A stretch of DNA of 64,000 nucleotides from Bdellovibrionales bacterium (GTDB taxonomy: Bacteria > Bdellovibrionota > Bdellovibrionia > Bdellovibrionales > JAGQZY01), in assembly GCA_019750295.1 (NCBI GenBank), contig JAIEOS010000012.1, positions 22,605 to 86,604 of the forward strand. The letters run 5' to 3'. Below the pieces are notes generated by a model, which was not told where the DNA came from, searched no databases, and saw only the letters and a program-made list of their open reading frames with translations. Shown here piece by piece: positions 10,572 through 64,000 of the stretch (position 1 is its first letter; every line of letters begins with the position of its first letter). Position numbers and translations under genes: made by a program.

Positions 10572-10922
10572 TGGTGGAGGCGCCGGGAATTGAACCCGGG
10601 TCCGCAAGTGATTCACGTTAAGACAAGCTACAAGTTTAGTCGGTATTTAATGACGGCTGACAACTTCTATCGACAAACTTTGTCAGCCCTTGCACCGAAA
10701 GATTTAAAAAGTTGAGCTCGGAACAACACTCAACTCTCGATGTGGCATTAGTTATACTTCCACCAGCGTCACCACCGAACACCGATTTCAGCATCAGCTT
10801 TTAATTAAGCTGCAAAAGCGAATTGATCGCCAGATAAAACAATGCACGTTTTTAACGAGGTCCACATGCGCCCCGACTTGCTTCCTAAGCTTCACGACCC
10901 ACGTCGAAGCCAGTACGCCCCC
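10572..10922 (-). ncRNA. ssrA: tmRNA (SsrA)
   Basis: On the minus strand the 5-prime end is GGGGGCGTACTGGCTTCGACGTGGG. The 3-prime tRNA-like end is GCGGACCCGGGTTCAATTCCCGGCGCCTCCACCA. The internal tag ORF GGC GAT CAA TTC GCT TTT GCA GCT TAA (10805-10831) encodes (A)GDQFAFAA*, a typical ...A-A degradation tag. Length is 351 nt. Confidence 0.85.
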
Positions 10923-50513: not shown

Positions 50514-50597
50514 GCCCGAGTGGTGGAATGGCAGACACGCTAGACTTAGGATCTAGTGCCGCAAGGTGTGCAGGTTCAAGTCCTGTCTCGGGTACCA
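50514..50597 (+). tRNA. tRNA-Leu (anticodon UAG)
   Basis: Hand-folded. The acceptor is GCCCGAG/CTCGGGT with a G1-U72 wobble. The anticodon arm is CTAGA-CTTAGGA-TCTAG, giving anticodon TAG. There is a long variable arm, a T-loop TTCAAGT, discriminator A and an encoded CCA. Confidence 0.9.
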
Positions 50598-50817
50598 ACT
50601 ATACTTTCAAGACACAAAAAATAAAAGCTTCGGAAAGACCTTCCGATGGCCCAGCTTTGTCACTTCACCGTTTTTTTGAACACTTTTCGTCACCTCAATT
50701 CACTCACTATCAATAGACCACAACAGTCCTTTAACTTAATTCATCGCATAAATATTCCCGATTGGCTGATTTCGGGCCCGATTAAATCGGGTGTACAGGA
50801 CGCATTATTATCTAGTC

Positions 50818-50997
50818 ATGAAGACAAGAAACCAAAAGAAGGAAAAGCGTGGTCGACCAAGACAATCGGTAGCGGAGATCGTTGTCCAAGCTACTATCGG
50901 TTCGACGAAATTAGCGGAGCACAAAAAACTTCTCATAAAACAAATCCTTCTAAGTCCAACACATGCTGTACCGGAGGTGTTTGATGATGCCGCTTAG
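50818..50997 (+). CDS. Possible small basic DNA-binding protein (AT-hook-like)
   Basis: This is part of track ORF 50791-50997: MKTRNQKKEKRGRPRQSVAEIV... The RGRP core is AT-hook-like. Its 3-prime end overlaps the recombinase start by 14 nt. It may not be a real gene. Confidence 0.3.
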   Translation: MKTRNQKKEKRGRPRQSVAEIVVQATIGSTKLAEHKKLLIKQILLSPTHAVPEVFDDAA

Positions 50998-52663
50998 AAG
51001 AAGAAGGCTCGTTGTCTACGTAAGAGTCTCATCCGACCAGCAAGCCGACGACATGACCATCGAGATACAAATAGAGAAACTAAAAGATCTTCTGACTATA
51101 ATGGGAATTCTTAATGGCACAAACATGCAATACGAATTCGTACCATGTGATCCACTCAATCACTCGCCAGAAAATCCATCTTTCTTTATTGATAATGGAT
51201 ATAACTTTGAAACTTTTAGAGAAGATACCGCTTTCCACCACTTACAAGAGAACTTTATAAAGGCAGGGCGGGTCGATACCGTAATGGTGTTCAACATCAA
51301 CCGACTCTTTAGGTCCGAAAATCTCGAAGTCGTTGGAAAGACTCTAGATCTTTTTAGAAAACATGAAGTCACAATCTTTTGCGACGGAAGTGAAAAACCA
51401 GCTGATATCGTTCTTACTTTGTTAGCTGCTATGGCCTCACAAGTAAAAACCGACGACTTAGCGAAGATGCATCTTGGAAAGCTTCGTGTTTGCAAGATGT
51501 CCGGCGCACCGCCATCAGGGCAAATAAAGCTCGGGTTTCAATGGCACAAGGAACCTAAACGTAGATATTGGGAACCAATCGAGGAGGAGCTTAGGATTGT
51601 ACGCTGGATCGGCTGCCTCAGCGCGGGAATTGATGATGTAAACCTACCTGATAGTTTAAGAGCCAGCCTCGATAAACAAAAGCTTGGACTCAGCGATAAA
51701 GAAATCTGCGATTTGCTTGCAGCGAATGGCATAAACTTAAAATCGTACGTTTTACGTAAAGACAATGATCGCCTTCTGAGAAGCAACCCCATGGGAGCGA
51801 TCCACGTGGACTGGGTAACAAGAATTTTAACTGACCCTACATATAATGGTCGAATGACATTTTACTTCCGCGACAGCAAAGATATTCGGCGCAAGGAACT
51901 CAAAGTTGAGCGAAGTGAAATCATACACCATTTGGACCGAAAAGTATTTGATGATGATGAATGGAAGCAGATTCAAGAACGACGAACTTTTCGATCTTGT
52001 TACGCTAGGAGAAACGTTAAAAACGAATATTTACTCAAAGACATGATCATTTGCAGCCACTGCGGAAAGCCCTACAGATGTAGTGTTAGTCGAAAAAATG
52101 GTAAAGCTGTAGGCAGCTATTACTATTGTAGTAGGAAGAGGTCCGCAGCAGAGGATGGACGATGTGTCTCACGCAAAAGCTTAAATACTCCGCTTATTGA
52201 AAACAAAATATGGGACGAGGTCGTTAAATACCTTATGGCGCCAGATCACTTAGAAGAAATCACCAAGGATGACAACACACTACTTATTGATCTTCTCCGC
52301 CGTCTTGATGCTAGTCGTATATCTCTCGAACGACGTCTAAATGAGTTTGAAGCGAAGATTTACAGAATAAATTCATTAATTGTAGACGGAGTGCTAACGC
52401 CAGATGATGGCAAAGCACAAAAAAAACGACTGGACTTAGAAAAACATGAACTCAAGAAAAAAATTAAAAATGAAACAAATGCAAAACAGCTACTGCTAAA
52501 CAATCAGAAAGTAATTGATAAAAAATCATTACAGATACAGATAATTGACAGGATTGACTGTCTCAGCTTTGAGGAAAAACGCTCGTTAACTAAACAGATC
52601 GTAAAAAGCATAGTCTGCGATAAAAATTTGAATGTCAAAGTTGAATTTTTCTCGGCAAAGTGA
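50984..52663 (+). CDS. Large serine recombinase
   Basis: ATG 50984 lies 4 nt after GGAGGTG. It has LVVYVRVSSDQQ (catalytic Ser), a recombinase domain, a zinc-ribbon-like CSHCGKPYRC...YYYCSRKRSAAEDGRC, and a C-terminal coiled coil. Confidence 0.85.
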   Translation: MMPLRRRRLVVYVRVSSDQQADDMTIEIQIEKLKDLLTIMGILNGTNMQYEFVPCDPLNHSPENPSFFIDNGYNFETFREDTAFHHLQENFIKAGRVDTVMVFNINRLFRSENLEVVGKTLDLFRKHEVTIFCDGSEKPADIVLTLLAAMASQVKTDDLAKMHLGKLRVCKMSGAPPSGQIKLGFQWHKEPKRRYWEPIEEELRIVRWIGCLSAGIDDVNLPDSLRASLDKQKLGLSDKEICDLLAANGINLKSYVLRKDNDRLLRSNPMGAIHVDWVTRILTDPTYNGRMTFYFRDSKDIRRKELKVERSEIIHHLDRKVFDDDEWKQIQERRTFRSCYARRNVKNEYLLKDMIICSHCGKPYRCSVSRKNGKAVGSYYYCSRKRSAAEDGRCVSRKSLNTPLIENKIWDEVVKYLMAPDHLEEITKDDNTLLIDLLRRLDASRISLERRLNEFEAKIYRINSLIVDGVLTPDDGKAQKKRLDLEKHELKKKIKNETNAKQLLLNNQKVIDKKSLQIQIIDRIDCLSFEEKRSLTKQIVKSIVCDKNLNVKVEFFSAK

Positions 52664-52703
52664 TGTACGAAATCCATTCGTATTAATTGTGGTTGTTTCT
52701 AAA

Positions 52704-53114
52704 TCAACTTAAAAAAATCATAATTGCTGAACCGTCTTCTTTTCCCAAATATTGGAAATCTTCAAAGCTATAGCCTTTTTTTAGTAAAAAATCTTTGATT
52801 GGCTTAAATAAAACGACTTCGAGAAAAATATCAGCATCTTTTTCAGAATAAACTACTGGGTCCCATTCAAGAATTACATGTAAACATTTATTCAATCGAT
52901 CAATTTCGGAAGATTTATTTTTTATTTCGTGGTCAACATAAACGGCACGTAAAATGTCATTAGAAATTTTTAAAGGAGGATTTGCTTTTCCAATATCCAA
53001 AACGAAATCATCTATCGATTTGAGGAGTTCTCGCTCAGCAGGATTGTATGTTACATAAATTGTTTCTAATCCCGCGCTCTCACTGTCTGTCAAAATATCC
53101 TCCATTTTTTTCAT
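52704..53114 (-). CDS. Hypothetical protein coupled to umuC
   Basis: 136-aa ORF whose ATG overlaps the umuC stop (ATGA at 53111-53114). No motif recognised. Confidence 0.5.
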
Positions 53115-54385
53115 TTTACTCTTAACAGCTCACCCCAGCGGGTCGTAAAAGCCTGCGAACGCATCTCGCTTCGCATTTTCCAAAACTGGTTTATGCCACA
53201 AGCCGCAGGCTTCAGCGTGCCTTTTCCCTCGCGAGCGTTCACTGCATCCATCGTCTCCATCAGGGTGTCGTCACGCAAAGAATCTGCGCTGCCAAAAAGA
53301 TCTAGCTGGGCATCTCGCTTCGGGGCAAGGTCATTTAAAATGACTCCACATTTTTTATACTCAAACCCTTCGCGAAATATGGCATCTAGTGCGAGAGACG
53401 ATTGGCGGATTAATTTTAGCGTCGAGGAAGAGCCAGACATAAGCTCCACCGTCGCAGAGTTATAATATTGGGGGACGTTTTTAAAAGGATTCGTATGCAC
53501 AAATACAGTAATCGACCTTGCGACGGATTTGTCTTTTCTGAGCTTCTCTGTCGCCGTATGCACGTGGTTGGCGATGGATTCTCGAATTTCTTCTTTTGCA
53601 CGAATCGGTTTACCAAATGAGCGACTCGAACAGATGGTTTTCTTTTCCTTTACAAGCTGTTCAAGATCGATGCAGGAGTTGCCCCTTAGCTCTTCGGTGA
53701 TTCTTCGCCCAACAATCGTGAGTTGTTTTTGTATCAGGTGTGCGTTGGCGTCGCGAAGATCTTTTGCCGTGTAGATCCGAAGATCGTTTAGTTTTTTCGT
53801 CGATTGGCGCCCAATACCCCAAACGTCCTGAACTAAAAACTTTGCAAGCTCTCGCTCTTGGATCGAGCGATCTAAAATCGAAAATACACCCTGAGATGTT
53901 GCTTTGTTTTTCTTAGAAATCCGATTGGCCACTTTGGCGAGCACCTTCGTAGGGCCGATTCCAATCGAAACAGGGATTCCTGTCTGTTTAAGAACGTCGG
54001 CTCGGATCGCTCTTACGTAGCTCAGAAGGTCGCGTGTTTTGAAGCCTGATAAATCCAAAAAGGCCTCATCGATCGAATAAACTTCCATATCAGGCGTATA
54101 TTCCTTGAGGATGTTCATCACACGGCGGCTCATGTCGCCGTACAAGGTGTAGTTGGAAGAGAACACGTGGACTTTGTGCCTCTTTACAAGGTCTTTGATC
54201 TGGAAATAAGGTGCGCCCATTTCGATACCAAGGGCTTTTGCTTCGTCTGTTCGCGCCACTGTACAGCCATCGTTGTTGGAAAGCACGATCACCGGTTTAC
54301 CTTCGAGATTGGGGTCAAACACCCTCTCGCACGAGCAATAAAACGAATTGCAATCCACGAGGGCAATGATTTTGTCCGTCTTCAA
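53111..54385 (-). CDS. umuC: Translesion DNA polymerase V catalytic subunit UmuC (Y-family)
   Basis: 424 aa with [27 protein letters not shown] and [10 protein letters not shown], which are typical Y-family motifs. Confidence 0.9.
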
Positions 54386-54810
54386 TCAAACCTCATGCGG
54401 ATGGAGTGCTTCAAAACACCCCAGATCTTAAAATCCATCTCTTCGGTCACTTCGATCGGTTTGTATTTTGGGTTCTCAGCCTTCAAAAAGACCTTCCCGC
54501 CGTTTTTAATGAGACGCTTGAGGGTGAACTCGCCGTTGAGATGCGCGAGCACTATGGAGTTGTGGTGAGCCTCTAAGGACCTATCGATGATGATCAGGTC
54601 TTTTTCGTAAATACCTGCGCCAACCATGGAGTCACCTTTAACCCACGCCATAAAAGTGGCCGACGGCTTAGAGATCAGAAAGGCATTGAGGTCGAGTGGC
54701 TTGTCAATGTAGTCATCCGCAGGCGATGGGAAGCCCGCGCTGACGGGGTTGCCCATAAGAAGAACCACGTTACTTTCGATTTTTTTGGATTTGATCAGTT
54801 GCAAGCTCAT
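54382..54810 (-). CDS. umuD: UmuD-like S24 peptidase (LexA-family self-cleaving)
   Basis: 142 aa with [12 protein letters not shown] (cleavage region), VKGDSM (Ser nucleophile) and FTLKRL (Lys). Its stop overlaps the umuC start. Confidence 0.85.
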
Positions 54811-54943
54811 ACTGTGACAATAACACTCTCCGTTGGGGCTGTCAGTTGGAGGCTAAAGCTTTTTCAGATTTAAATCAGTCAGGTTTAAATTGTTGCAACG
54901 CTTCAGATCTAGTTATTTAGTGAGGTAATCAAGATAAGTGTTG

Positions 54944-55537
54944 TCAATGATAAAATTCATGCAGTGAAATTAGCCAAATGTTACTGCCTTGAGAGGATAA
55001 TTTGACACTTTTAATGGCGTATAGGCCACCTTCTGTTTCGAGTTGCTTGTAGCTCGAAGCTAACCCTTCATTAATCATAAAAAAACCACTATTTGTAGAT
55101 TCTGATACTGCTCGTAGTCCACCTTCAACTATCCCGCCGTGAAGCAAACATTCAACATCAACTTCCGCTAGCCAAACATAAGCATCATTCGCCTCGAGAA
55201 AGGTAGTTTGCGCTCCATCATCATCGTATTCGGCTGGTTTTGTATGCAGAGTTCCGTGCGTTTTAAATTGATCTCCTGAAATCGGATACAAAAATAATCT
55301 ATGGAAGACGATCATATCTTCACGTGGAGTATTGGTGTCGGCGTTATAATTATGAACAGCTTGCAAAATTATTTTTTGAAAATTTATTTTCTCGGCGTCT
55401 GTTATTGCAGAATCTATGATCTCAACAAGAAACCCACCAGCAGCAACACGAATTTTGATAGCAGCATTCGGCAAAATCGATTTAATAATTTGAGAAAGCT
55501 TAGGTGAGATTTTCAAAGATAGACTTTTATCATTCAT
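54944..55537 (-). CDS. Hypothetical protein (third gene of the ABC-ATPase cassette)
   Basis: 197-aa ORF that is very AT-rich. Its start overlaps the stop of the 188-aa ORF (ATGA 55534-55537). No motif recognised. Confidence 0.5.
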   Translation of the reverse strand: MNDKSLSLKISPKLSQIIKSILPNAAIKIRVAAGGFLVEIIDSAITDAEKINFQKIILQAVHNYNADTNTPREDMIVFHRLFLYPISGDQFKTHGTLHTKPAEYDDDGAQTTFLEANDAYVWLAEVDVECLLHGGIVEGGLRAVSESTNSGFFMINEGLASSYKQLETEGGLYAIKSVKLSSQGSNIWLISLHEFYH

Positions 55538-56100
55538 ATTAAACCACCAAAAAATTTTTTTTGAACATCCGTAAATAATTGAATCATAGTACTTAGCTCA
55601 CTTCCAAAATTTCTTTTAATTTGCTGACTCGGATCTCTATACCTATCCTCAATCCAATTTCCTTTTTTTGGCAAATTTTGACGAAAAAGATCGAACTCTA
55701 AATCATTTACCAAATCAAGCACATCATACTGTAGTGTTTTTGATAGATCGTAAATACCGTGTCCGAACCTATGCTTTGGATTAAGATTTTTGGCTGTGCT
55801 TAATGGATAATTATCAACTAGCCATGATATGTGGGTACCGGGCTGCTTGTGATTGTGGCTTACAAATTTAAAATACCTAGATATACAGTATATATCTTTT
55901 AAGAAACATTCGATACTTATAAGTAGCGCATAGTAAGCATCTCTTTCGTAACCATGAATTTGCTGTAATACTTTTACTAAATTTAAATGACTGCGGTAGG
56001 CGGGGAAATACCCCTCTTCGCCAGAAAAATAAATACCTGTTTGCGGTAGACTTTGTCTTAACGTATTTTTTAAATCTACAAAACCAGAACTATTGATCAT
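55534..56100 (-). CDS. HEPN-like domain protein (PF05168-type pattern)
   Basis: 188 aa. ALLISIECFLKDIY (E-x-x-L-K helix), GHGIYDLSKTL (H-x-L-x-x-L) and WIEDRYRDPS (R-Y-P-like) occur in the order typical of classical HEPN domains. This was read by eye only. Confidence 0.4.
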   Translation of the reverse strand: MINSSGFVDLKNTLRQSLPQTGIYFSGEEGYFPAYRSHLNLVKVLQQIHGYERDAYYALLISIECFLKDIYCISRYFKFVSHNHKQPGTHISWLVDNYPLSTAKNLNPKHRFGHGIYDLSKTLQYDVLDLVNDLEFDLFRQNLPKKGNWIEDRYRDPSQQIKRNFGSELSTMIQLFTDVQKKFFGGLI

Positions 56101-56228
56101 TTATTTCCTCAAGCTAAAGATTATCAATGATTCAGCCCTCATCTAGTGTCTATGCGTTAAATCTGTTGGGTAACATCTTTCGATGAGAGCGGCATACCAA
56201 AATATAATTTATCCAAATTGGAATTTCT

Positions 56229-58925
56229 CTATTTTTGTTCACTGCTTACTATAGTCAAATGTGAGGCTTTAGGATGTTCGTCTTTATTTTCTTTAGCCTT
56301 GAGTTTTGTTAACTCACGTCGAGATTTAATTTCTTTGATCCATTTATCAAGCGAATCTAAGTGCGATTGCGCATCGTCGGGACTAGGATATGGCTCGTTT
56401 ATTTCGCTTGGCTCGTCGTGACCATCACGCCATTTTGAGCACGTTCCCATCCCCAGCAGCACAGCGTCGTAGTCTGATGGCACAACATCGACAAGCTTTA
56501 GGCGCTGAGTTTGGATGGGGCGCTCAACTCGATTAATGACATCATTCAGTAAAACCCCCTCGATGGCCCGTTCCCATGCCTCTTGTAAACGGCCATAAAA
56601 AGCTGCGACTTGAACCCCGTACTCATAATCGGTAGCACTTTTATGTATAGAATTTATTTTTTGTATGTCGTTTCTTAACGCTTTAATTCTTTGTTCTGCC
56701 GTCATGCCTCCCCACGGAAGGCCTTCAACGCAAAATCCGGGCACACTACCTTTACGCAAAATATGAACATCGGCGCGAGCCATTCGCCCCTGACGGGAAT
56801 ACACTTCGTTTAGGAGCATTACAAAGGCAATGTCATGAGTGAAAATTACAACTTGCCGATCTACTGCCTCTTTCATCAATCTTTCGGCGACTTTACGCCG
56901 TCTAGTGTGATCCAAAGAAGAAACAGGGTCGTCAAAAATCAATGCAGAACGGGAGGGCTCGGTAGCAAGCTCTGATAAGAAACACGCAAGTGCGATAGAC
57001 CGATGCTCGCCCTCGCTTGCAATATCATCAACACTAAATGGAGAAGTTCCAGAGGATTCTAAACCAATCTTGTAGCGTAGTGATCCTTTTGCTCCACCCA
57101 CAGGATCAAAGCTAATCGGCAAAGTAGTCATACCAAGCGCTTTAAGCTCAGCAGAGAACCGGTCACGAAGTACCCCAGTAATAACTGTTTTACTGAGTTC
57201 TGTATTTTTTGCGGTGATGCCGGTTGTGTTTGTATCTTTCAACGCAGCTTCAAAAAGCTTTCGACGTTTAAGACGATGAACTTCAGCAATAATTTCGTCC
57301 TTGTGTTTCAAAACAAGCTGCCGCGCCTGTAATTCGGCGAGTTGTTTTTTGCGTTTAGCAACCTCGTCAGCGATATCAAGATTGTCGAGCTCAGTAGCTT
57401 TTTTATTTAAATCTAAAGAAAGTGTCTTCAATTCCTCTACACCTGATTTCGGGAGAACATTCTCTGTTTTCTCCCAGTCGTTTTTATCAAGGCAATGAAG
57501 CACACTGTCTTTTCTAATACGAACGCAATCTAAAAAATACGAGACAAGTGATTTCGCCTCAGCACTAATTTCTCCTAGTTCGGCCATCAGAATCGAGTCC
57601 GTAGGAAAGGTGACAGCGAGAGATTCTAACTCGGTTTTAGCTTGGGCCAATACTTGCTCTGCCGCTTTAGCCGATGTCTGCGTGGCTTGTTTTACAAATT
57701 CATCAAAACTACGAAGCCTTTCGCAAGCCTCATCTGAAAGCTCTTGATGGCACAAAACGCAAAGGGCTTCGCCGTGAGTGACAGGGAAGCTCTCGGATGG
57801 ATATGCCTGACTTACTGAATATGCTCGAGCTGCGGCCCATAAAAGCTTCCAAGGATCGGACCCGACACCATCGAGAGGATCGTCTTTAAAGGTGTTACTC
57901 GATGCGATGGATGCAGCCTTTTGCTTTGAAGTTGCATCGACTTGTTTTTCTCGCAAACGCGATACGGCAAAGTCATTCAGTGCAATTTCAGTTTTTTCTA
58001 TTCGCCCAGCAAGTTCTGTAAATTTTGTTGCCTTTAAACGATACTCTTTAGCGAGCTTCTTCGGATCAGAAACTTCCAATTGCATCAACTGTTTTTGAAG
58101 CTCTGGTGTATTATAGGCCTCGATGGCGGCATCCTTCGCGACTTTTTCAATTCCATCGATATTAGTCTCTGAATTAAGTCCGGCAACTGCCTTACCAGCG
58201 CTCGTATCTTGGTTGAAACCCACAAAATTCTGTTTTTTAGAATCGAGTTTTTTAATTTCGTTTTGAACAGCATTGGCTACTAGTTCACTGGCTTGAGCGA
58301 GTTTTGCGAAAACATCAAGACCGGCAGGAGTGAATGCAACATCTGTGTTCTCGGTGACATAGGTTGAAGCGCACAATGAATCGAAAACACTCACAGCCGA
58401 TAGAGCCGCAGGACCAGACACTCCTTCACTCCATTTTACCATTTCGGATTTATTACCAATCTGAAAATGAATCGTTGCAGAGGCAGGAGGCTGCGAGCCT
58501 TGCGCCAATGCATTCGGCGTTACAGGAGAACCTGCGCCCCGTGCACGACATACACGCTTTAAGACCCGAGCATAGCCAGACTTCCCTGCGGCATTATCAC
58601 CGTAAATGACCGTGATACCCGTTGGCGACAGGAGCAGTTTTTGATTTTGCGCAAGACCATTGATTCCACATGTGTCTTCGATAGATTTTATCGCAACTGC
58701 CCCATTGGTAGCAGCCGATTGTGTGACATGTGCCGCCGTCAATGGCATTGCATCTATTTTTGGCTTGTCAGGGGTTTCTATCCCTTGCTCTTGAAGGCAA
58801 ATTTGAATGAGTTCAGCAATGTCGAGCTGAGACAACTTTTCCTGTGTTATGATTCGTCGTAAACAGTCGCGCTGCCATATTGGCCGCTTCTCCGACCATT
58901 CAAGAATAGACATATAAATACTCAC
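56229..58925 (-). CDS. AAA_13-family (RloC/PrrC-like) coiled-coil ABC ATPase with CxxC zinc hook
   Basis: 898 aa with Walker A GDNAAGKS (res 109-116), signature-like ASEGEHRSIAL, Walker B/D-loop ALIFDDPVSSLD and H-loop FTHD. The two lobes are separated by about 450 aa of coiled-coil-like sequence with CVLC (res 389-392, 57750-57761) near its middle. A further ~190-aa C-terminal domain follows. Confidence 0.75.
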   Translation of the reverse strand: MSIYMSILEWSEKRPIWQRDCLRRIITQEKLSQLDIAELIQICLQEQGIETPDKPKIDAMPLTAAHVTQSAATNGAVAIKSIEDTCGINGLAQNQKLLLSPTGITVIYGDNAAGKSGYARVLKRVCRARGAGSPVTPNALAQGSQPPASATIHFQIGNKSEMVKWSEGVSGPAALSAVSVFDSLCASTYVTENTDVAFTPAGLDVFAKLAQASELVANAVQNEIKKLDSKKQNFVGFNQDTSAGKAVAGLNSETNIDGIEKVAKDAAIEAYNTPELQKQLMQLEVSDPKKLAKEYRLKATKFTELAGRIEKTEIALNDFAVSRLREKQVDATSKQKAASIASSNTFKDDPLDGVGSDPWKLLWAAARAYSVSQAYPSESFPVTHGEALCVLCHQELSDEACERLRSFDEFVKQATQTSAKAAEQVLAQAKTELESLAVTFPTDSILMAELGEISAEAKSLVSYFLDCVRIRKDSVLHCLDKNDWEKTENVLPKSGVEELKTLSLDLNKKATELDNLDIADEVAKRKKQLAELQARQLVLKHKDEIIAEVHRLKRRKLFEAALKDTNTTGITAKNTELSKTVITGVLRDRFSAELKALGMTTLPISFDPVGGAKGSLRYKIGLESSGTSPFSVDDIASEGEHRSIALACFLSELATEPSRSALIFDDPVSSLDHTRRRKVAERLMKEAVDRQVVIFTHDIAFVMLLNEVYSRQGRMARADVHILRKGSVPGFCVEGLPWGGMTAEQRIKALRNDIQKINSIHKSATDYEYGVQVAAFYGRLQEAWERAIEGVLLNDVINRVERPIQTQRLKLVDVVPSDYDAVLLGMGTCSKWRDGHDEPSEINEPYPSPDDAQSHLDSLDKWIKEIKSRRELTKLKAKENKDEHPKASHLTIVSSEQK

Positions 58926-59054
58926 TCAAAGCCCCCCTAAATTGTCCTGAGTCCCGCGCCAGAACAGCGTAAGAGGGTATCGCCAACACTTTTATAGTCA
59001 AGTTTTTGGAGGTCGATGAGTTGCGTAAAAATAGGACAACTGTGATATTTTGCT

Positions 59055-59087
59055 AGAGGGAGTGCTATCTCTTTAAGCACCCCCTCT
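59055..59087 (-). terminator. Hairpin after the 810-aa gene (candidate terminator, no clear U tract)
   Basis: AGAGGGAGTGCT (59055-59066) and AGCACCCCCTCT (59076-59087) form a 12-bp stem with one mismatch. It lies 11 nt downstream of the stop at 59098. Confidence 0.35.
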
Positions 59088-59097
59088 TATCCTCGCA

Positions 59098-61530
59098 TTA
59101 TTTGAGTAGCCGCAGCTTAACTACGCGGTTGGCGGTGTCTACCGCAGGGCCAGTTGGCCGAAGATGCTGATCGATCCCGTCGAGCTTTTCATGCGTTGTC
59201 CGATGGTGCGTCACATTTTCTTCACGAAGCTTGATAACTTCTTCTCGGGTCTTTTCGTGGTTGATCTGTTCATTGGTTCGACATTCAAGATCTTTTATAC
59301 GACGTAACAAGGGCAAGTTTCTCTCGCATGTCTTTAGATAATTAACGTAGATCGCCGTCGTATCCGAGCCACTATCCGTGTTCAGCTTGTGACCCAACAA
59401 TACTGATTGTAATTCTTTTCGCTCGACACCATGGTAATTGACCTCAACGTAAGTGCCCCACATGTTGCGTAACAAATGCGCTGTGAAGTTACTAACTTTC
59501 TCTTCGAGATTTAACACCGCATCTAAGTCTGCGTTGATACCAAAAAGATCGATCATAACTCCTGATAGGTGATGAGCTATGGTTTGAGTCCCAAATGGCA
59601 ACAGGGGGTCACCATGTTTTATGCCTCGTCGATGCTTGTAAAACATGATGATGTCTTCACAGACCGTTGGCAGAACGCCTAAGTAAGTGAGATCATTTTT
59701 TCGATTCCCATTAATAAAAAACGTAAGCATCGTGTCCTCGGTCAAAGGAAGATGCTGTTTCAAAGGTTTGAGTTGCTCTGGGAGCCACCACAAACCACCG
59801 GCTACTTTCTTCGGAAAAATACAATTCGGACTGTATAAATTTAAGTCCGTTGGTTCTCGATCCAACCAAATGAACTCCGCAAGCTCACTGTAAATCCTGA
59901 AACCACCTCCACAGAGAAGAGCTACACTTGCAAGATAATCAAGCTCGCGTTCCTCATCGCTATTGAACTGTTCATTCCTAAGAGTTAAAAGCCCACCGAC
60001 GCGAAACTTTCCATCTACGCGCTTCTTGGCCCCTTTCTTTTTGTTAGCGCATACTTCACCGTAAGCCTGTTCGCATAGATATTGGGTCAAATGTTCGATG
60101 TGACTTGATTTAACCAAATGAGATTTTTTTCCGATTTTGGAGCTTGAACCATTGTAAAACGTAGAGACAGCATAATAGTCGTTTTTAAGTTTACTAAAAA
60201 ATACTGGCCAACTGCACGGACCATTCGCAAAAGCCACTGAGTATTCCGCAATATTAAATTTTGACAATGGACCGTCGGAGGTGTTGTCGTTAAGCGATTT
60301 AAACTTGTTCTTGAAAACTTCCCACGTTTCCTTCTCGCAAAAGGTTAACCTTTCGTCGCCTGCGCCAGTCATTGTTAAACAGTCGCCAAGGGCCTTTATA
60401 CTTTTTAAATAGCTTGACCCTTTTTTAACTTGGGAGGCCCTAACGAGAACGGTGATGAAGTCAGAGGGGAATAAGTACCTAAAGTCAAAATCACGTTCTG
60501 AAGAACCAAGAGCAGCAATGATTACTCTAAATAGACCGAGTGGACTATTCAGCGATTTTTCTTCGTACCCCAACTGCTCCATCAATGGCTTTTCTATTCT
60601 TACCTTGAAGTAAGCTCGCTGAGATTCGGTTAATATTGCTATAGGCTGCTCTTGAAGATCCTCAAAAAGTGCAGGCAACTCCAAATTGTATTCTTTAGCT
60701 AACCATCGAAAAAAGGGTTTGGAACAACTAAATTCGGTTCGATTAAATCGAGCGCCAATCACAGAAACGATTTTTTTAAAAAGGCCCTCGCTCAAAACAT
60801 CATCAATATTATTGATTCCGGCACAAAACATCGCTTTCCGTGCAGAACTGATAACACTTCTGCCATGTTCGGTGCCGTAAGCGTCGCCGAACTTTTTAAA
60901 CAGTGCCTCAATCTCAATAGACTGGAGGGAATACTTTGCCCTTCGAGACCGAGTAGGATTGGATGAAGTTTCAAAAATAAAACTACTCAGTCGTCCTATC
61001 TTTGACAATGTCGCCGCGTTGATCGGCTCCTCATGTTTTGTTCGACGAAATTCTTCAATAATCTTGGGCTCCATGAAGCGCAGCCTCATCGACCAAGGGT
61101 CTTGAAGATGGTTGAGGCCGGTCTTCGGATCGCCTCCGTGGTTTTTCTTGAGCCATGGAATATATGTCGTACGCAGAGCACTAAAAGTTTGGTCGCGGGT
61201 GCTGTCGGCGAAGCAAGTATCAATAGCTTTTTTTAAATCGCCAAGGGTCAGGGAGTTGTACTCAGCATCTGACTTCACCTTCGGCACAAGCGAATTGCGG
61301 AGTTCACAGATCCGATAATTGATCGCGGCCAACACGTCCTTAACCGGCTCGTTGTCTGGAATTTCAAAACTGTGGCTTTCAAGAAAACTCTCCAGTTGTT
61401 CCGGCTTGAGACGACCGGTAAGGCCAAATTTCTCATTTTGAATCGAATGCCAGATTTGCTGGAACCAATCACCCTTGAATCTGCGGGTATTTTTCATCTC
61501 TTTTATTTCATTTCCCTTGTCATTACACAT
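59098..61530 (-). CDS. Large protein with C-terminal tyrosine-recombinase catalytic domain
   Basis: 810 aa with GGGFRIYSELAEFIW (R545), AHLLRNMWGTY (H685-x-x-R688), LLGHK (H714) and AIYVNY (Y728/Y731). These fit the R...HxxR...H...Y order and spacing. The N-terminal ~520 aa has no recognisable domain. Confidence 0.6.
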   Translation of the reverse strand: MCNDKGNEIKEMKNTRRFKGDWFQQIWHSIQNEKFGLTGRLKPEQLESFLESHSFEIPDNEPVKDVLAAINYRICELRNSLVPKVKSDAEYNSLTLGDLKKAIDTCFADSTRDQTFSALRTTYIPWLKKNHGGDPKTGLNHLQDPWSMRLRFMEPKIIEEFRRTKHEEPINAATLSKIGRLSSFIFETSSNPTRSRRAKYSLQSIEIEALFKKFGDAYGTEHGRSVISSARKAMFCAGINNIDDVLSEGLFKKIVSVIGARFNRTEFSCSKPFFRWLAKEYNLELPALFEDLQEQPIAILTESQRAYFKVRIEKPLMEQLGYEEKSLNSPLGLFRVIIAALGSSERDFDFRYLFPSDFITVLVRASQVKKGSSYLKSIKALGDCLTMTGAGDERLTFCEKETWEVFKNKFKSLNDNTSDGPLSKFNIAEYSVAFANGPCSWPVFFSKLKNDYYAVSTFYNGSSSKIGKKSHLVKSSHIEHLTQYLCEQAYGEVCANKKKGAKKRVDGKFRVGGLLTLRNEQFNSDEERELDYLASVALLCGGGFRIYSELAEFIWLDREPTDLNLYSPNCIFPKKVAGGLWWLPEQLKPLKQHLPLTEDTMLTFFINGNRKNDLTYLGVLPTVCEDIIMFYKHRRGIKHGDPLLPFGTQTIAHHLSGVMIDLFGINADLDAVLNLEEKVSNFTAHLLRNMWGTYVEVNYHGVERKELQSVLLGHKLNTDSGSDTTAIYVNYLKTCERNLPLLRRIKDLECRTNEQINHEKTREEVIKLREENVTHHRTTHEKLDGIDQHLRPTGPAVDTANRVVKLRLLK

Positions 61531-61798
61531 ATTTATTCTCCCTATTTATATTATAATTGATTTGACGCATTATTTCCACAAATCTTAGAAGTTTTGGGCG
61601 ACGAAATTTTGGAAATTTAACTTGAAATTTATCTCTAAAAGATTGATTTTGCTCAACTTTGCTAATCTCTGCTTGGCTTTGCTCGGAGATATCATCCCAT
61701 AATTTTGAAATCTTAAAAGATCAATGAAATTAGTAGCTTGCAGAGAGCCTCCTAACAGAGCAAATCCGAACACTTCTATATTAGAAAGCACTGCCTGT

Positions 61799-62119
61799 CT
61801 AAAAATTGGACACCGCCGTCGCAGCCTTTTGAGACGCTTTCTTCTCCTGTTTGCGTTGTCGCTTAATCGAACCTAGCTCTTCTAGGCGCTGCATGAGTTG
61901 GCCAAGTTGAAGGAACGTAAGATGACCCACCAGCGGCGGTACTGGCCCACCAAACTCCTCTATAACCTCGTCAAGACGTCTGCGAAACGTGTAGATGCTT
62001 TGTCGAAAGTTAATCCGCTCCATACACTCTTCAAAACTCAACAGCTTATGTCCGTACTCACCAAAAACTGAAAAGCTTTGCTCTTCTTTTAACTTTTCTT
62101 CTCGATCTCGTTTCTCCAT
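61799..62119 (-). CDS. Small charged hypothetical protein
   Basis: Track ORF is 61799-62179; the likely start is ATG 62119 (MEKRDREEKLKEE). The C-terminus is Lys/Gln-rich. It sits upstream of the 810-aa gene on the same strand. Confidence 0.4.
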   Translation of the reverse strand: MEKRDREEKLKEEQSFSVFGEYGHKLLSFEECMERINFRQSIYTFRRRLDEVIEEFGGPVPPLVGHLTFLQLGQLMQRLEELGSIKRQRKQEKKASQKAATAVSNF

Positions 62120-62364
62120 GGTTAGCCCCCTTTGTTTTAATAATAAGCACCTTCGTGCATCTGGGGGAGGGTTTACCAATTCGCAGAACCAACTCTTGGC
62201 TTAGTTGGATTTTTTTTCAAAAATGAGGGATTTTTTTATCGTGAAGCTTTGGTGCCCAGTAAGCGAGCAGTATTGGGCATAACTTTGTTGAGGCCCGAGA
62301 GAATGTCGATTCTTTGTTGAATCGCGGGTGTTTGCATTTGCTCGGGCTCGACTTGACCTAAAAG

Positions 62365-63933
62365 CTAAAAAATAACCTTGTACCGTTTCCTGAGTGCCTT
62401 TGCGATGCGCTCCCGAACCGTCCATGCAACTCTCCTGTTACCGACGCCGAGCACGTTTCCCAAGCGATGTGTCCTATCGGTATCATTGAGGGGGGTGATG
62501 ACAATAGTGAGAAGGAGGCTTCCCACAAATACCTCACAAAATATTTGCTGCTTTGTGACAGCAACTTCGAGCATCTTCAATTCACCGAGACAGTTTCGCA
62601 TTTTTTCTGAATGCTCGATCATTTTGAACGGAGTATTTAGGTTTCTTATTAATATGTCTTCGTGAACGATAGTCCATTCGTCATTAAAGTGCTCCGTCAA
62701 TTCAAAACTAGGAACGTCTTTAGCTGCTCTCAATCGGGCCTCCTCCTGACGAGCACCCATGAAAAGTCCGATCCACCTATCAAAAGCTTTTATAGCGTTC
62801 ATATTTCTGCTGATACTGATACTTGGATTCTGAATGAAATGAATGATGGCGAAGCTAGCTGAGCTATTCTCAAAGTATTTTTTCAATACTCCATAATTTT
62901 TAAAAATTAAGATCGCAATCTCTTTATTTCTAGCAGTACCTTTCGACAGATCAAAACGGTGACGTAAAAACTTTTGTGAGCAGATAAGATTTATGAATTC
63001 CTCTCGCTTTTTGGGCTCTTTCGGCACGTATAGATGAGGGAAATAAACAAGTGGGGCTGAAATATGGATGGCGGGGAAAGTTCTACGCGTTCCAAGCTGA
63101 AGAAGTTTCCACCAGTTGCCGAACGCAACTTTCAAATCGTTTATGCCTAAAGATTGTAAATCGCTCCAGTCCTGATGTGCGGAACTATCGTATGTTTGTA
63201 AATACATAAGAGAATAAAACAGACGCAAGCCTACCTTTTTAAGGCTTCTGCCAGCTATAAGCTCACCAAGCATCGTTTCTACAAGTGATGAGCTAAAATA
63301 ACCCTCGCGCAGCCCGTAGGCTAAAACCGAAAGAGACGCTGGGCAAATTTTATCAAGTTGAATTATCCTCTCATGCTTTAAACGCTTACATAGCCAGTAA
63401 ACGTGAAAACCATCTTTTACATATTTGGAACAGAAACCCAATCCCTCTTTTTCCATTAGGAATAAAAAATACTTTTCAATTTTCTTTAAGAAAATACCGT
63501 ACCTTTGTAAACCTCTTCTGATTTTCCAAGCAACAGGAAATGGGGTGCGGCCAGATCTCCAAAAATCTCTCATGTCATCGTAGCTTGTACCAAATAAACA
63601 ATTTCCTCTTCGCAAAGTCGATAGCTTCCGTCCAAAGTTAAGGCTTACATGCGAAAAATATCCTCCGTCGAAATCTATATAGGCTCGCCATCTAGTGATT
63701 TTGCTCTGCTCTAAAGTCGTTACCTGTAGTACGTAAAGGTTGTATTCTTTAAAAAAGACAGTCGCGTGTGCATAATTTCCCTCCTCAAAACTAAATTGAT
63801 CGATGATTTGATCTTGTGTGATCTCGGAACTGCCACGATATCTAATATATCCTGCGTATTTTAAGTGTGAACCCATAACTTTATATAAATGGAACTTGGC
63901 CAAATAGATGACTGGAGATTTCTTCAGCTTCAT
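62365..63933 (-). CDS. Hypothetical protein, possibly PcfJ-like C-terminus
   Basis: 522 aa. The C-terminal LNTPFKMIEHSEKMRNCLGELKMLEVAVTKQQIFCEVF...LGVGNRRV recalls the PcfJ-like pattern (L..EG..m.HCv..y......if.v...q..g..N). This is a weak assignment from memory. Confidence 0.4.
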   Translation of the reverse strand: MKLKKSPVIYLAKFHLYKVMGSHLKYAGYIRYRGSSEITQDQIIDQFSFEEGNYAHATVFFKEYNLYVLQVTTLEQSKITRWRAYIDFDGGYFSHVSLNFGRKLSTLRRGNCLFGTSYDDMRDFWRSGRTPFPVAWKIRRGLQRYGIFLKKIEKYFLFLMEKEGLGFCSKYVKDGFHVYWLCKRLKHERIIQLDKICPASLSVLAYGLREGYFSSSLVETMLGELIAGRSLKKVGLRLFYSLMYLQTYDSSAHQDWSDLQSLGINDLKVAFGNWWKLLQLGTRRTFPAIHISAPLVYFPHLYVPKEPKKREEFINLICSQKFLRHRFDLSKGTARNKEIAILIFKNYGVLKKYFENSSASFAIIHFIQNPSISISRNMNAIKAFDRWIGLFMGARQEEARLRAAKDVPSFELTEHFNDEWTIVHEDILIRNLNTPFKMIEHSEKMRNCLGELKMLEVAVTKQQIFCEVFVGSLLLTIVITPLNDTDRTHRLGNVLGVGNRRVAWTVRERIAKALRKRYKVIF

Positions 63934-64000
63934 GTTGGTCTAATAGGCCTTCGTATCGGTAGACCTCGTAACTTCTCTCAAACCATATCCAAGTAGGCGT

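Follow-up and report, generated by a model that had tools for sequence, protein, structure and literature searches.

The window analysed here, a stretch of 64,000 nucleotides (nt) from a Bdellovibrionales bacterium (assembly GCA_019750295.1, contig JAIEOS010000012.1, positions 22,605 to 86,604 of the forward strand), carries three minus-strand genes at 54944-58925 for which a preliminary description had proposed a three-gene defence cassette. Our analysis favors a different reading, to which we assign a probability of roughly 0.6: two independent modules lie side by side on a mosaic integrative island at a tRNA-Leu gene. One is a standalone gene for an RloC-like ABC ATPase of 898 amino acids (aa; 56229-58925, minus strand), which belongs to the long subfamily of PADLOC PDC-S06 / Pfam AAA_13. 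The other is an operon of two small genes for proteins of 188 aa (55534-56100, minus strand) and 197 aa (54944-55537, minus strand). All three open reading frames (ORFs) and the motifs first quoted for them were recovered at their positions, as were the ATGA stop/start overlap at 55534-55537, by which the 197-aa gene is translationally coupled to the 188-aa gene, and the 128-nt spacer between the ATPase gene and the pair (56101-56228, minus strand), which holds a GAGGA Shine-Dalgarno sequence in front of the 188-aa ATG.

The three-gene cassette is not real; what we see are two neighbors on a mobile island. Two sets of loci bear on this, a neighborhood survey of 55 loci with ATPase homologs and a tblastn set of 79 ATPase-related loci. 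Across the 55 homolog loci no conserved neighbor of the ATPase was found, and the flanking genes, including those downstream, differ in size and strand. When the neighbors were clustered, the largest groups proved to be DNA methyltransferases (5), followed by SbcCD-like pairs (3-4) and serine recombinases (3). A gene of about 400 aa that seemed to recur upstream on the same strand was rejected as a candidate partner, the proteins being unrelated. The closest ATPase homolog (56% identity; locus L001, 5279-7867) is directly followed by a convergent gene and thus has no same-strand gene downstream. The preliminary description had proposed looking for co-occurrence of the small genes with AAA_13 genes; tblastn with the 188-aa and 197-aa proteins, and likewise with the 810-, 136- and 522-aa proteins of the same island, gave no match in the 79 ATPase-related loci. 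Conversely, the pair recurs as an operon of its own in 8 other loci, none of which has an AAA_13 gene among its called neighbors, and in one of these (L083) it sits among housekeeping genes. Base composition separates the modules as well: GC content is 0.33-0.38 in the pair, 0.45 in the ATPase gene and about 0.48 in umuDC, and GC content at third codon positions (GC3) is 0.27-0.29 in the pair against 0.38 in the ATPase gene. Because the pair occurs in other loci that have no ATPase among the called neighbors and differs from the ATPase gene in composition, we regard it as self-contained and of separate origin. The fallback offered in the preliminary description, an independent pair, holds.

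Against this background it is very improbable that the ATPase and the two small proteins constitute one abortive-infection cassette in which the small proteins act as effector or regulator of the ATPase. The cassette draws on the shared strand, the tight spacing and the common island of the three genes, and also on the spacer, in which no terminator-like site was found, so that read-through co-transcription of the ATPase gene and the pair is possible. Co-transcription on a mosaic island would not, however, imply functional coupling, and the cassette leaves unaccounted for the complete lack of homologs of either small protein in the ATPase-related loci, the variable downstream neighbors of the ATPase, the occurrence of the pair in unrelated surroundings and the very unlike base composition. 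A single promoter-like site at 56258-56231 is weak and does not rise above shuffled controls.

For the two independent modules, the identity of the first is well founded at the level of family. The ATPase scores 54.3 bits (E=1.3e-14) with AAA_13 (PF13166), above the Pfam gathering threshold of 36, residues 101-723 aligning to profile positions 15-595 of 713, while AAA_21 and SMC_N match more weakly. The PADLOC model for PDC-S06 (hidden Markov model (HMM) PDLC04891) covers nearly the entire protein (residues 1-870 to profile 1-857 of 858, E=1.4e-226). PDC-S06 is a single-gene candidate model, which fits the absence of conserved partners described above. The assignment to AAA_13-type ABC ATPases is therefore supported, and the accompanying remark that no named system could be recognized has to be divided: the cassette as a whole fails, and the ATPase does have a name, that of the PADLOC candidate PDC-S06. 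We found 296 homologs, mostly full length (about 860-890 aa) at 31-38% identity, with one at 56% (P0002). The family reaches at least 80% query coverage on 176 plasmid records; it was not found in phage genomes. At L001 the gene of the closest homolog directly adjoins genes for a Dcm-type DNA methyltransferase, a 274-aa protein and a Vsr endonuclease; the vicinity also holds ISL3 transposases, a resolvase and a phage-type integrase, a typical mobile defence context.

The ABC motifs were followed through two alignments, one of 26 homologs at 31-56% identity and a second of 120 sequences. Walker A (GDNAAGKS, residues 109-116, 58578-58601, minus strand) and the motifs of the C-lobe (56832-57017, minus strand), namely the signature SEGEHRSIAL (637-646), the Walker B/D-loop ALIFDDPVSSLD (661-672) and the H-loop FTHD (695-698), are present in full. 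G109, N111, G114 and K115 of Walker A, SEGE, DDP-SSLD and H697 are invariant in all 26 homologs and, given the identity range of these sequences, the motifs are not a product of chance. Halfway from Walker A (115) to the signature motif (637) stands CVLC (residues 389-392, 57750-57761, minus strand), a putative zinc hook of the Rad50/RloC type. Both cysteines are conserved in 120 of 120 sequences, within a block that also comprises W359, W363, Y375, P381 and Q394. The residues flanking CVLC are rich in A, E, K and L and poor in Pro and Gly; together with the AAA_13, SMC_N and SbcC-like profile matches this composition suggests a coiled coil over residues ~206-600. The split ATPase with a central CxxC, as first described, is borne out, its coiled coil being a prediction from composition and profile matches. 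The 2012 RloC paper gives no consensus for the hook motif. In front of the first ATPase lobe the protein carries an N-terminal extension of about 95 aa (58641-58925, minus strand), with W17, D20 and R23 as invariant columns and the consensus WQRDALRRL; a Pfam scan of this domain in isolation returned no match.

The C-terminal tail is the putative effector. An AlphaFold2 (AF2) model of residues 738-898, built from an alignment of 24 sequences, has a predicted local distance difference test (pLDDT) value of 90.3 and consists of four long helices arranged as a four-helix bundle; we delimit the predicted HEPN-like domain, a putative RNase/anticodon nuclease, to residues 738-880 (56286-56714, minus strand). 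The tail contains FYGRLQEAWERAIE at residues 776-789 and CSKWRDGHDE at 829-838. Conserved residues in the 120 tails are R781 in 118/120, E785 in 120/120, R786 in 109/120, E789 in 116/120, R799 in 118/120 and H836 in 120/120. RloC has been defined by ABC motifs, a coiled-coil/CXXC insert and a C-proximal triad Arg-X3-Glu-X36-52-His, which in Geobacillus kaustophilus comprises R692, E696 and H737; an Ala substitution of any of the three inactivates the protein (PMC2610378, Davidov & Kaufmann 2008). The window ATPase has the ABC motifs and the helical insert with its central CxxC, and its family has the triad with the spacing R781-x3-E785-x50-H836, inside the published range. The tail had initially been said to recall the Arg/Glu...His residues only loosely; at the level of the family the match to the published spacing proved to be precise and near-invariant, although this copy lacks the Arg, as set out below. 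When the tail model was run through Foldseek against the PDB, HEPN domains headed the list (E=0.04-1), among them 1wol (E=0.043, probability 0.93), 2hsb, HepT 7bxo_H (probability 0.92), 1o3u, 1ufb and sacsin, each of them short of significance. These matches agree with the published assignment of the PrrC/RloC nuclease domains to the HEPN superfamily. A strict Rx4-6H motif is missing from the tail, a Lys or Arg standing five residues before the His in 49/120 sequences, and Pfam returned no match to the isolated tail. The C-terminal domain of the ATPase is a better HEPN-like candidate than the 188-aa protein, for which the preliminary description had used that label.

How the window ATPase relates to canonical RloC can be seen from a weakly related locus in Xenorhabdus (L078). 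Its 764-aa protein has Walker A near the N-terminus, CHFC at residue 276 and a tail with R668-x3-E672 followed by Ser-His, and it matches PF13166 from end to end (2-712 of 713, E=8.5e-154). PADLOC calls it PDC-S06 as well (PDLC04894, E=1.1e-168). As a canonical AAA_13 protein bears this name, PDC-S06, a bioinformatic candidate made up of many HMMs, in effect amounts to the RloC/AAA_13 superfamily, within which the window ATPase belongs to a longer subfamily. With RloC of G. kaustophilus and Acinetobacter baylyi it shares the ABC motifs, the predicted long helical insert with its central CxxC (a putative hook), the family-level triad spacing, the AAA_13 profile and the standalone gene that is rarely linked to restriction-modification. 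It differs in the extra conserved N-terminal domain of ~95 aa, which the Xenorhabdus protein lacks, in a tail without detectable sequence similarity to the canonical AAA_13 tail, and in the residue before the triad His, which is Gly or Ala in those members of the window subfamily that have a residue aligned there and usually Ser in RloC. A third type of tail occurs in the superfamily in two further loci (L071, 5521-7035; L073, 4864-7407), with the pattern MRRL(I/V)E ... SIT(E/G)HDDPR, that is, R-x3-E and an invariant-looking His; the protein of the second of these loci also has an N-terminal extension.

A number of observations weigh against our reading, beginning with the spacer that lacks a recognizable terminator. 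In the window ATPase and its closest relative P0002, and in these two alone among the 120 sequences, the triad Arg is replaced by Gln (Q781, codon 56583-56585), all others having Arg; the triad is thus incomplete in this copy. Since the corresponding Arg-to-Ala mutant of RloC was dead, Q781 calls for caution as to catalytic competence, and the nuclease of this copy may be weakened or altered. (Two residues before Q781 the window ATPase has an Arg, R779, and P0002 a Ser.) Homology of the tail to canonical tails is tentative at the sequence level: in hhalign comparisons the subfamily tail alignment matched the third-type tail of L073 at E=0.0093, RxxxE and GHD being aligned, and the Xenorhabdus tail at E=0.33; a local HMM of the 120 tails does not reach the canonical tails; and the AAA_13 alignment of the window ATPase stops at profile position 595/713, leaving the C-terminal ~120 positions unaligned. 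(In another subfamily member, at L057, it extends to position 688.) None of the Foldseek matches to the tail falls below 1e-3, and generic four-helix bundles are interleaved with the HEPN domains at similar scores. The papers found that name PDC-S06 treat it as a prediction and report no experiment on any of its members. As to the second module, none of the libraries scanned gave a profile or fold match that would support toxin and antitoxin roles of the pair.

Some of the same points would suit another reading of the ATPase, namely that of a Rad50/SMC-like protein acting on DNA in plasmid or foreign-DNA restriction or in repair, with a tail that is regulatory or protein-binding and not an RNase. 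The solved sequence relatives closest to the family profile are Rad50 heads (E=4.5e-5 against PDB sequences), a PHROG SbcC-like match was obtained, and the homology of the tail to RloC is unproven at the sequence level; generic bundles scoring about as high as HEPN domains and the Gln at the triad position fit this reading too. We nevertheless judge it unlikely. Residues conserved in 120/120 (E785, H836) and 118/120 (R781) sequences with the spacing of RloC resemble an active site and not a docking surface, the fold list is headed by HEPN domains, and the 55 homolog loci show no conserved partner of the Mre11/SbcD nuclease type beside the ATPase. No such phosphoesterase is encoded in the window either, and the SbcCD-like pairs near 3-4 of the homologs are separate genes and not partners. 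With Rad50/SbcC the window ATPase does share the ABC head, the predicted antiparallel helical arm and the CxxC of a putative hook; unlike these proteins it has no adjacent Mre11/SbcD nuclease, its arm is much shorter, and it ends in an additional HEPN-like domain. PrrC, in turn, offers the same concept of an ABC ATPase N-domain joined to a C-terminal Arg/Glu/His nuclease, and the PADLOC PrrC model matches the window protein over residues 663-711 of the C-lobe only (E=1.3e-4). PrrC is a protein of ~400 aa without a coiled-coil or zinc-hook insert and is always encoded in a type I hsd locus, whereas the window ATPase has 898 aa and an insert of ~400 aa; no hsd profile match was obtained among the neighboring ORFs scanned, in agreement with what had been noticed at the outset.

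For a standalone RloC-like ATPase, the observed architecture and residue conservation serve as the starting point from which activity, trigger and substrate may be deduced by analogy. According to published RloC work, a Rad50-like head and hook respond to DNA and DNA damage and control a C-terminal RNase that disables translation. The window protein has a Rad50-type ABC head split by a long helical CxxC insert, with the family-specific N-terminal domain of ~95 aa in front and the predicted HEPN-like four-helix tail behind. If it works like RloC, its head and hook would keep the tail silent as long as no DNA-linked stress occurs, for example phage-induced DNA damage; the released tail might then cut tRNA or other RNA and halt translation, with abortive infection as the outcome.

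The second module, the 188/197-aa pair, is rare. A word-indexed search of 5.8 billion proteins returned nothing except self-matches for both proteins, and an exhaustive HMMER scan of 1.84 billion representatives yielded 34 matches to the 188-aa protein, including itself, mostly of similar length. In the alignment of this family, E64, K68, R75, H114, W149, R153 and Y154 are invariant at a mean column identity of 22%; the E-x3-K, H and R-Y motifs picked out from the single sequence thus coincide with invariant columns of the protein's own family. Every 188-aa relative with readable context (8 loci) is followed by an overlapping gene, the overlap being of the 4-nt ATGA type in L080, L081, L083, L084, L085, L089 and L090 and of 10 nt in L087. 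The downstream partners are homologs of the 197-aa window protein (E=1e-25 in L080, for instance), apart from that of L087, which fits by position and size, aligns weakly in the 197-aa family alignment and gave no tblastn match. Hence the 197-aa gene, previously described as an orphan, has homologs downstream of the 188-aa relatives. No other island protein of the window was detectable in the 8 pair loci, and viral contigs gave no match to the pair. Small, co-directional and overlapping genes that stay paired across unrelated contexts, as in type II toxin-antitoxin (TA)-like systems, were accordingly found in 8 further loci. In the 197-aa family alignment only E39 is invariant. Some copies appear to be damaged: the nearest relative of the 188-aa protein (L088, 4992-5243; 50% identity over residues 16-79) is a truncated remnant of 83 aa without the H114 and R153/Y154 motifs and without a partner gene, probably a decayed copy; in two further loci (L094, 4847-5833; L095, 1761-2747) the match to the 188-aa protein is spread over two reading frames, a sign of either a frameshift or a misassembly, and the 197-aa homolog downstream is intact.

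What the pair does may be approached from its conservation. Seven invariant residues at such low overall identity give the 188-aa protein the look of an enzymatic or toxic component, and the poor conservation of the 197-aa protein that of a regulator or antitoxin; we infer these roles from the alignments only. Neither protein had a match in the Pfam, PADLOC, NCBIfam or PHROG scans. The AF2 model of the 188-aa protein is confident (pLDDT 89.8) and all-alpha, with no significant counterpart in the PDB or BFVD by Foldseek (best E 1.0), and the family profile found nothing significant among PDB sequences. For the 197-aa family, the three best PDB matches to the profile over residues ~10-65 are all BolA-family proteins (2kz0, E=0.017; 5nfk, 0.13; 2mcq, 0.33), a weak but consistent hint of a BolA-like N-terminus.

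It is doubtful, though worth considering, that the pair represents a HEPN-type TA system in which the 188-aa protein is a divergent HEPN RNase and the 197-aa protein its antitoxin. The conserved two-gene operon with its stop/start overlap would be expected of such a system, E64-x3-K68 resembles the published Ex3[KR] element of HEPN domains, a basic residue often stands 3-4 positions before the invariant H114, and one member of the family matches PF05168 with E=0.041. HepT toxins are the Foldseek matches of highest template modeling (TM) score to the 188-aa model, but at TM 0.30-0.42 and a probability of ~0.1 they are not significant, and the defining Rx4-6H element is absent, there being no conserved Arg 4-6 residues before H114 in the family. 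HepT-MntA is like the pair in its small overlapping two-gene operon and its all-alpha first protein with Ex3K, and unlike it in the Rx4-6H motif and in the partner, which in the window is not an MNT nucleotidyltransferase and has the BolA-like N-terminus as its only hint. With no significant match in Pfam, PADLOC, NCBIfam, PHROGs, PDB sequences or Foldseek, the HEPN label given to the 188-aa protein in the preliminary description is not confirmed.

Reading the locus as two independent modules has consequences for annotation. The kind of ATPase is already catalogued (RloC-like, AAA_13, PDC-S06), and the window protein is a further member; an annotation of the ATPase system should leave out the neighboring small genes. 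The PADLOC name shared with canonical AAA_13 proteins and the retained triad spacing tie the PDC-S06 candidate to RloC-type anticodon nucleases, which provides a testable mechanism for a family that many plasmids carry (Klebsiella and Pseudomonas plasmids among them) and that occurs in many bacterial phyla. The pair, rare and conserved and with an enzyme-like set of invariant residues, is a modest lead for TA or defence discovery. It is possible, at odds well short of even, that both modules are more than this, the operon being an undescribed TA or defence family (with the 188-aa protein possibly a divergent HEPN-like RNase) and the long PDC-S06 proteins a distinct anticodon-nuclease lineage. 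If this holds true, the long subfamily with its extra, sensor-like N-terminal domain would form a functional anticodon-nuclease lineage apart from canonical RloC.

The island itself adjoins the tRNA-Leu gene (50514-50597). The region to the right of this gene has a GC content of 0.424, compared to 0.471 in the remaining window. The island (50514-64000 of the window) contains a serine recombinase, umuDC, the pair, the ATPase gene and orphan ORFs of 136, 810, 126 and 522 aa; its GC3 is strongly mosaic, ranging from 0.24 to 0.65. No second copy of the tRNA-Leu 3' end, as would mark the island boundary, was detected inside the window, so the far boundary lies outside it. The cassette had been placed in an AT-rich tRNA-Leu island between umuDC and a recombinase gene. 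The AT-rich island and the tRNA-Leu gene are borne out; the recombinase with a profile match, a large serine recombinase (50963-52663), actually lies beyond umuDC as seen from the ATPase gene, and the next gene upstream of the ATPase gene (59098-61530, minus strand, 172 nt away on the same strand), which encodes 810 aa, has no Pfam match. By eye, the C-terminus of the 810-aa product reads like a tyrosine recombinase (AHLLRNMWGT ... LLGH ... YVNY), and neither the whole protein nor its C-terminal 302 aa matched anything in Pfam, PADLOC, NCBIfam or PHROG. The 136-aa and 522-aa proteins gave no match in these scans either. The 136-aa ORF (52704-53114, minus strand) and the stop codon of umuC overlap by 4 nt; at 0.316, the GC content of this ORF is very low. 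Elsewhere in the window, a tmRNA gene is located at 10572-10922 (minus strand), with the tag peptide ADAEIGVRW.

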